Source: Escherichia coli
Lineage (GTDB): Bacteria; Pseudomonadota; Gammaproteobacteria; Enterobacterales; Enterobacteriaceae
Assembly (NCBI RefSeq): GCF_003334355.1
Contig: NZ_QOWP01000108.1
DNA length: 413 nucleotides
Direction: 5' to 3' (one strand)
The stretch's first letter is position 1. Every line of letters starts with the position of its first letter. Made by a program: the position numbers and the translations under genes. Positions 1 through 413 of this stretch are shown in pieces. Under the pieces are notes generated by a model. The model made no database searches. It was given only the letters and a program-made list of their open reading frames with translations, and was not told the DNA's origin.

Positions 1-413
1 ACCTCGAAAAATCTTCCACCAGAAAGCTACCCAGTCGGCGCACCAATCCCGTGGCCATCAGATACCGTTCCGTCTGGTTATGCCCTGATGCAGGGGTAGA
101 CTTTTGACAAATCTGCATACCCGAAACTTGCAGCCGCTTATCCGTCAGGCGTGATCCCTGATATGCGTGGCTGGACGATTAAGGGCAAGCCCGCCAGTGG
201 TCGGGCCGTATTGTCTCAGGAACAGGACGGCATTAAATCACACACCCACAGCGCCAGCGTATCCAGTACGGATTTGGGGACGAAAACCACATCGTCGTTT
301 GATTACGGCACTAAATCCACGAATAACACTGGTGCGCATACCCATAGTGTTAGCGGTACGGCTGCTTCAGCCGGTGCACATACCCATTCGATGACATTTG
401 TTTCAGGTGGTTC
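1..413 (+). CDS. stf: Side tail fibre protein, lambda Stf-like, internal fragment open at both window edges; interrupted by an in-frame TAG at 97-99 (candidate pseudogene or amber allele)
   Basis: Frame +1 is open over 1-96 and 100-413, with a single stop (TAG, 97-99). The translation carries motifs I recall from lambda Stf and E. coli prophage fibre paralogs: [57 protein letters not shown] and the Gly/Ser/Thr-rich [24 protein letters not shown]. The family-like sequence continues straight across the stop, which argues for one disrupted gene rather than two adjacent genes. The reading frame enters at position 1 and leaves at 413 with no start or natural stop in view. The family-level symbol stf is used; the exact paralog cannot be told from this fragment. 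No alignment was run. Confidence 0.8.
331..390 (+). repeat. Imperfect direct repeat inside the coding sequence encoding two G-A-H-T-H-S His-box motifs
   Basis: ggtgcgcatacccat (331-345) and ggtgcacatacccat (373-387) are identical at 14 of 15 positions and both encode GAHTH in frame +1. A third His-box, SHTHS, lies at 238-252 but uses cac codons, so it is similar at protein level only. This is a coding-sequence repeat, not an intergenic repeat. Confidence 0.6.

Follow-up and report, generated by a model that had tools for sequence, protein, structure and literature searches.

Introduction

[quoted passage not shown] Along the axis of the needle, seven Fe ions are held by di-His motifs, and the H929A or H931A substitution abolishes plaque formation. 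A 215-residue tip of this kind has been described as a family common to T4, Ur-lambda and enterobacterial prophages, and the side tail fibre Stf of Ur-lambda is reported to carry a gp37-type tip and to bind OmpC. In Bas63, the STF and LTF proteins harbour seven and six di-His motifs, respectively.

T4 gp12 has a single Zn site. The name 'His box' for HxH motifs, with the consensus GxHxH, is said to go back to work by Tetart et al. from 1996 and 1998; our literature search did not retrieve the phrase 'His boxes' together with gp37. Such boxes are textbook features of a tail-fibre tip module that is very common, and are thus already known.

We analysed a stretch of 413 nt, hereafter called the window, in which a first-pass annotation made from the letters alone had recognized three His boxes of the T4 gp37 type. 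That annotation had also stated that in T4 the His pairs coordinate metal ions along the fibre axis, in agreement with the published seven Fe-binding motifs.

Results

The window belongs to a prophage side-tail-fibre gene

The frame +1 translation of the window comprises 137 residues and is open apart from a single TAG. Megablast searches against complete E. coli genomes found the window in 3,745 of 5,426 of them, the best matches lying in genes annotated as coding for prophage tail fibre proteins and differing from the window at one position out of 413. In the full-length homologue, a Stf-like lambdoid prophage side tail fibre of 1075 residues, the window corresponds to residues 854-990 and thus to the distal part of the fibre, where the first-pass annotation had placed it. 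The homologous prophage locus (L001) encodes in succession gpJ, a lom-family protein, the 1075-residue tail fibre protein and a tail fibre assembly protein. This gpJ-lom-stf-tfa arrangement is the lambdoid prophage order, and the gene occupies the same position as those of Ur-lambda Stf (orf-401/orf-314 in lambda PaPa) and of K-12 Rac StfR.

The prophage of L001 adjoins appY and ompT. The wider appY/ompT/envY neighbourhood of the homologous prophage is the position of DLP12 in K-12. Downstream of stf-tfa, homologous prophages also encode, on the opposite strand, a class I SAM-dependent methyltransferase, and a second tfa is present there as a pseudogene fragment (L001 6308-6976 and 7126-7293; same region in L002).

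Comparison with lambda orf-314, which represents the C-terminal part of Stf, gave 64 identical, 39 synonymous and 19 nonsynonymous codons, as would be expected of a frame that encodes a protein and is under selection. Open reading frames in the other frames and on the minus strand, of at most 75 residues and overlapping the fibre frame, were rejected as genes, and an Rfam scan of both strands of the window matched no family. Using tblastn against phage genomes, we found 719 phage records matching the window; T4 gene 37 is 78% identical to it (E=7e-53). The first-pass annotation had proposed a search of tail-fibre families as a check, and significant matches were obtained to PDB entries, to PHROG tail-fibre families (down to E=3.8e-143) and to the Pfam Collar family. 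NCBIfam contained no family matching the tip or the full-length protein. The features of the window are collected in Table 1.

Table 1. Features mapped on the 413-nt window, with the support for each
Feature	Position (nt)	Strand	Support and remarks
Internal fragment of a prophage Stf-like side-tail-fibre gene	1..413	+	412/413 identity to annotated E. coli genes
Phage Tail Collar domain, PF07484	37..180 (window residues 13-60)	+	Pfam i-E=2.7e-12, whole model (1-57 of 57)
In-frame TAG (amber), CAG in all close homologues	97..99	+	C97T; Gln886 of the homologue, equivalent to T4 gp37 Q836
His box 1 (H81-T-H83), equivalent to T4 gp37 H883/H885	241..249	+	2XGF alignment; His in 137/137 tips
Ser/Thr/Gly-rich stretch from box 1 to box 2	250..336	+	Nearly identical to gp37 residues 886-914
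Two copies of GGTGCRCATACCCAT	331..387 (331-345 and 373-387)	+	Repeat search; 14/15 identical, 42 nt apart
His box 2 (H113-T-H115), equivalent to T4 gp37 H915/H917	337..345	+	2XGF alignment; His in 82-86% of 137 tips
His box 3 (H127-T-H129), equivalent to T4 gp37 H929/H931, next to head	379..387	+	2XGF alignment; His in 74-77% of 137 tips
Start of hypervariable head (receptor-contact) region	388..413	+	Homologues diverge strongly after box 3; region cut off at window edge

The HxH motifs match the metal-binding boxes of T4 gp37

The pentapeptides SHTHS (nt 238-252), AHTHS (334-348) and AHTHS (376-390) are found in frame +1 at exactly the coordinates first reported for them, and all six histidines of the translation sit within these three boxes. 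As the region is compositionally biased, such HxH triplets might have arisen by chance or merely reflect the low complexity of a Ser/Thr/Gly/His-rich segment, with no specific role. In 200,000 composition-preserving shuffles, at least three HxH motifs arose with a frequency of 4.25e-4, which corresponds to P of about 4e-4 against a chance origin, and three HTH motifs did not occur once. The Gly/Ser/Thr-rich character that the first-pass annotation had ascribed to the spacers was recovered, with 17 such residues out of 29 between boxes 1 and 2 and 6 out of 11 between boxes 2 and 3. The role as linkers that it had given them did not hold up: by homology they would form beta strands of the six-stranded needle, the stretch between boxes 1 and 2 being its predicted outgoing strand.

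The G-A-H-T-H sequence of boxes 2 and 3 is encoded by the 15-nt direct repeat GGTGCRCATACCCAT. One period of this motif amounts to 14 residues, which is the spacing of these two boxes and also the period of the Phage_fiber repeat, Pfam PF03335. The latter signature is listed among the precomputed Pfam domains of many close homologues. In the full-length homologue, it gave weak matches at six of the seven boxes (i-E 0.013 to 2.6); that these single-repeat matches are individually not significant speaks for the chance explanation.

We then used the last 275 residues of the full-length homologue as a phmmer query against all PDB sequences. The top match was 2XGF, the receptor-binding tip of T4 gp37, with E=3.8e-89 over homologue residues 861-1075 and 71% identity over 214 aligned residues, rising to 75% within the window part. 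The full-length homologue has seven HxH boxes in its tip, only the first three of which are held by the window, the other four lying past its 3' end. All 14 histidines of the module pair with gp37 histidines in the alignment. The three boxes of the window align one to one with metal-binding histidines of the solved structure (Table 1), and the four others correspond to gp37 H966/968, H980/982, H989/991 and H998/1000, so that the assignment of the boxes to the T4 gp37 type is supported.

Next, we examined the conservation of the boxes. A search of 1.84 billion cluster representatives yielded 2,131 proteins at E<=0.001, including 263 at E<=1e-30, and the best 150 representatives provided a set of 137 distinct aligned tips. 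In this set, histidines are present in 99-100% of the tips at boxes 5 to 7 (see Table 1 for the first three boxes), while the non-His positions average 67-70% conservation, below the histidines. An alignment of 49 sequences with identities as low as 57% shows no variation at H81 and H83 and at least 90% conservation at H113 and H115. Of 120 close homologues, more than 95% retain boxes 1 and 2 and about 45% retain box 3. Conservation of these positions in homologues, on which the first-pass annotation had made its claim depend, was thus found in all three sets. Box 3 lies at the border of the hypervariable head and, for this reason, is clearly less well conserved than the first two boxes. It is replaced by other residues, often Asp or Asn, in about one quarter of the 137 aligned tips, indicating that not every box is obligatory.

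Taken together, the shuffle test, the one-to-one alignment with 2XGF and the conservation across 137 distinct tips exclude a chance origin of the boxes, to which we accord practically no weight. With a probability of about 0.93, the HxH motifs of the window represent boxes 1 to 3 of the seven di-His metal-binding sites that make up the needle series in a receptor-binding tip of the T4 gp37 type, located at the C-terminus of a lambdoid prophage Stf protein.

The tip behaves as a C-terminal module

In the full-length homologue, the module spans residues 854-1075 of 1075, and tfa follows directly downstream in L001. C-terminal placement and a following chaperone gene, which are features of gp37/Stf-type tips, are thus seen in homologues, beyond the window. 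Of the representatives covering the whole module, 78 out of 78 have it ending at the last residue of the protein. As these proteins range from 277 to 1599 residues, the tip is a mobile C-terminal cassette.

The resemblance to the gp37 tip extends to the same order of collar, needle and head, to the seven aligned HxH boxes and to the C-terminal end ...NTVKNIAFNYIVRLA, which is identical in the full-length homologue. In contrast with the T4 distal half-fibre, the protein carrying the module is a side fibre of the lambdoid siphovirus type whose shaft is rich in Ala and Ser, and a Tfa-type assembly protein comes next rather than gp38. The DNA is too dissimilar to that of T4 for a megablast match. 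The head, between boxes 3 and 4, is two residues shorter than that of gp37 and unrelated to it in sequence, and hence receptor specificity may differ; this divergent head may specify a receptor other than that of T4 or lambda.

Lambda Stf shares the collar and the proximal needle with the window (86% DNA identity over nt 37-315; 78.8% protein identity). Unlike the window homologue, lambda orf-314 contains eight HxH boxes; its head is different and longer, and it also differs from the window by an extra 10-residue FDYGTK unit between boxes 1 and 2. Thus, the window harbours one copy of this unit (nt 286-324) and orf-314 two copies (residues about 157-176, 10-residue insertion). Some tip representatives carry two or three copies between these boxes, and the variation in copy number changes the spacing of boxes 1 and 2 among homologues.

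More distant relatives include T4 gp12-type short tail fibres and the Felixounavirus (Bas63) fibres, which resemble the homologue in having a Tail Collar domain and, after it, HxH metal sites that face the axis of a trimeric tip. Identity between the Felixounavirus tips and the window is about 35-37%. The short-tail-fibre chain 9cuy_c matches only the collar plus the linker after it (query residues 57-136, E=2.5e-9), with no His box aligned. We rejected a gp12-type short tail fibre tip, as the similarity to 9cuy_c does not extend beyond the collar into the metal-binding head.

The collar-needle block has a sharp distal edge

The Tail Collar domain, which is another feature of gp37/Stf-type tips, immediately precedes the needle. 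Both the collar part of 2XGF and the chain 9cuy_c align with it. Approximately 60 residues preceding the collar (GDTYILVNFYTGVGSCRTLQMKAHYRNGGLFYRSSRDGYGFEEDWAEVYT) match the tail fibre protein S of phage Mu (PDB 8ju3, E=3.3e-15), and the Pfam gp37_C signature (PF12604) weakly matches the same residues. The Mu-like region corresponds to L001 4842-5040, just upstream of the window, plus nt 1-27 of the window. The match to Mu protein S indicates that the fibre is a mosaic of Mu-like and T4-like modules.

At the other side, the start of the head region aligns with gp37 tip residues studied by mutagenesis. Tips that are near-identical elsewhere are hypervariable in sequence between boxes 3 and 4. 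At the DNA level, fibre genes of other E. coli prophages and phages become homologous to the window in a narrow band, at nt 1, 28, 31, 37 or 49, and cease to be so in another, nt 344-365, just 3' of box 2; most of the homology to other prophages stops 3-20 nt past this box. K-12 stfR is a case in point: it is 95.8% identical to the window over nt 1-356, and the homology stops just past box 2. These narrow edges delineate the collar and proximal needle as a conserved block whose distal edge is at His box 2. As judged from sequence comparisons, such a block with a sharp distal edge fits mosaic exchange of the head region.

His boxes were reportedly proposed by Tetart and Krisch as crossover points for T-even adhesins. 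The boxes might accordingly matter mainly at the DNA level, as crossover islands for the swapping of receptor-binding modules, with metal binding being secondary; this idea is compatible with the structural reading. The termination of megablast alignments to other prophages and phages just past box 2, the 15-nt repeat shared by boxes 2 and 3 and the hypervariability of the interval between boxes 3 and 4 all speak in its favour. However, the end points are found after the box and not in it, and they simply mark the start of the variable head region. Moreover, the histidines are kept in the T4 protein although its DNA is too diverged for megablast, the His positions are more conserved than their neighbours, and the loss of plaques with T4 H929A and H931A, the counterparts of box 3 of the window, reflects a requirement at the protein level. 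Conservation of the protein together with the T4 mutagenesis data show that a role in DNA exchange is not the whole story and is at best an additional one; as the main significance of the boxes we find it doubtful.

An amber codon interrupts the collar

An uninterrupted reading frame is a further feature of gp37/Stf-type tips, and from this the window departs. The C97T change that creates the TAG codon is the sole mismatch to the best genomic matches. It affects Gln33 of the window, which is inside the Tail Collar domain and is an invariant Gln in the 49 aligned homologues. As the TAG is upstream of all three boxes, the first of which begins at nt 238, a product ending there would be devoid of them, as the first-pass annotation had pointed out. 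Because of this interruption, the boxes may not be expressed in the source organism.

We searched for the amber allele in several collections. No 100% match was found in the 5,426 complete E. coli genomes by megablast, and a 42-nt pattern spanning the TAG was absent from the GTDB representative genomes, IMG/VR and the JGI metagenomes. Similarly, neither the two likely products of downstream open reading frames nor the truncated product of 885 residues had an exact match in a set of 15 billion proteins, and among the homologues examined, none starts just after the amber site or ends at it.

The boxes might thus be a silent remnant in a pseudogene truncated at the amber codon, whose product would be an 885-residue fibre lacking both needle and head. 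The replacement of an invariant Gln argues for this explanation, as does the fact that prophage tail-fibre genes are often degraded, with tfa pseudogene fragments occurring nearby in homologous loci. On the other hand, a single difference in 413 nt from intact genes implies that any inactivation is very recent. CAG to TAG is also the classic suppressible amber change, exactly reversible by a Gln-inserting suppressor, and the absence of the allele from all collections searched suggests that it may have arisen in the laboratory or been introduced, and not through natural decay. On balance, we regard the silent remnant as a serious possibility at somewhat less than even odds.

A Gln-inserting amber suppressor (supE) would restore the wild-type protein exactly at a CAG-to-TAG site. 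The TAG allele could therefore be conditional and dependent on a suppressor, either as a laboratory amber mutant or as a natural copy relying on read-through. We consider this quite improbable; were it true, suppression would switch on the His-box needle and the head, and hence fibre-mediated adsorption.

Proposed architecture of the prophage tip

An AlphaFold2 model of the 222-residue tip as a monomer, built with the 49-sequence alignment, had a pLDDT of 58.3 and a pTM of 0.25. A low monomer pLDDT is to be expected when a single chain is modelled out of an intertwined trimer. For a linker-joined trimer, consisting of three copies connected by 25-residue Gly/Ser linkers and modelled with a tripled alignment of 7 sequences, the corresponding values were 38.8 and 0.23. 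With such values neither model is reliable, and the trimer prediction proposed in the first-pass annotation thus yielded no usable structure.

By homology to the solved T4 structure, and in line with published mutagenesis, we infer metal binding and trimer geometry for the prophage tip as follows. Three chains would intertwine into a six-stranded beta needle, with each chain running from the collar to the small head along boxes 1 to 3 and then doubling back along boxes 4 to 7. The three HxH pairs at each box, one from every chain, would face the axis and together bind one metal ion octahedrally. This metal is Fe2+ in T4. The metal ions would pin the register of the chains and stabilize the thin needle, by which the variable head is offered to the receptor (OmpC/LPS in T4, OmpC in Ur-lambda). 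The Tfa protein encoded downstream would be the chaperone required for folding. In the copy carried by the window, the boxes would be made only if the collar TAG is suppressed or read through.

Significance

As the di-His iron sites have already been described both structurally and genetically, the identification of the boxes matters little beyond correct annotation. The boxes nevertheless mark the border between a conserved scaffold and a variable, host-range-determining head, which is relevant to tail-fibre engineering. For the copy present in the window, the lone amber codon upstream decides whether a functional tip can be made.
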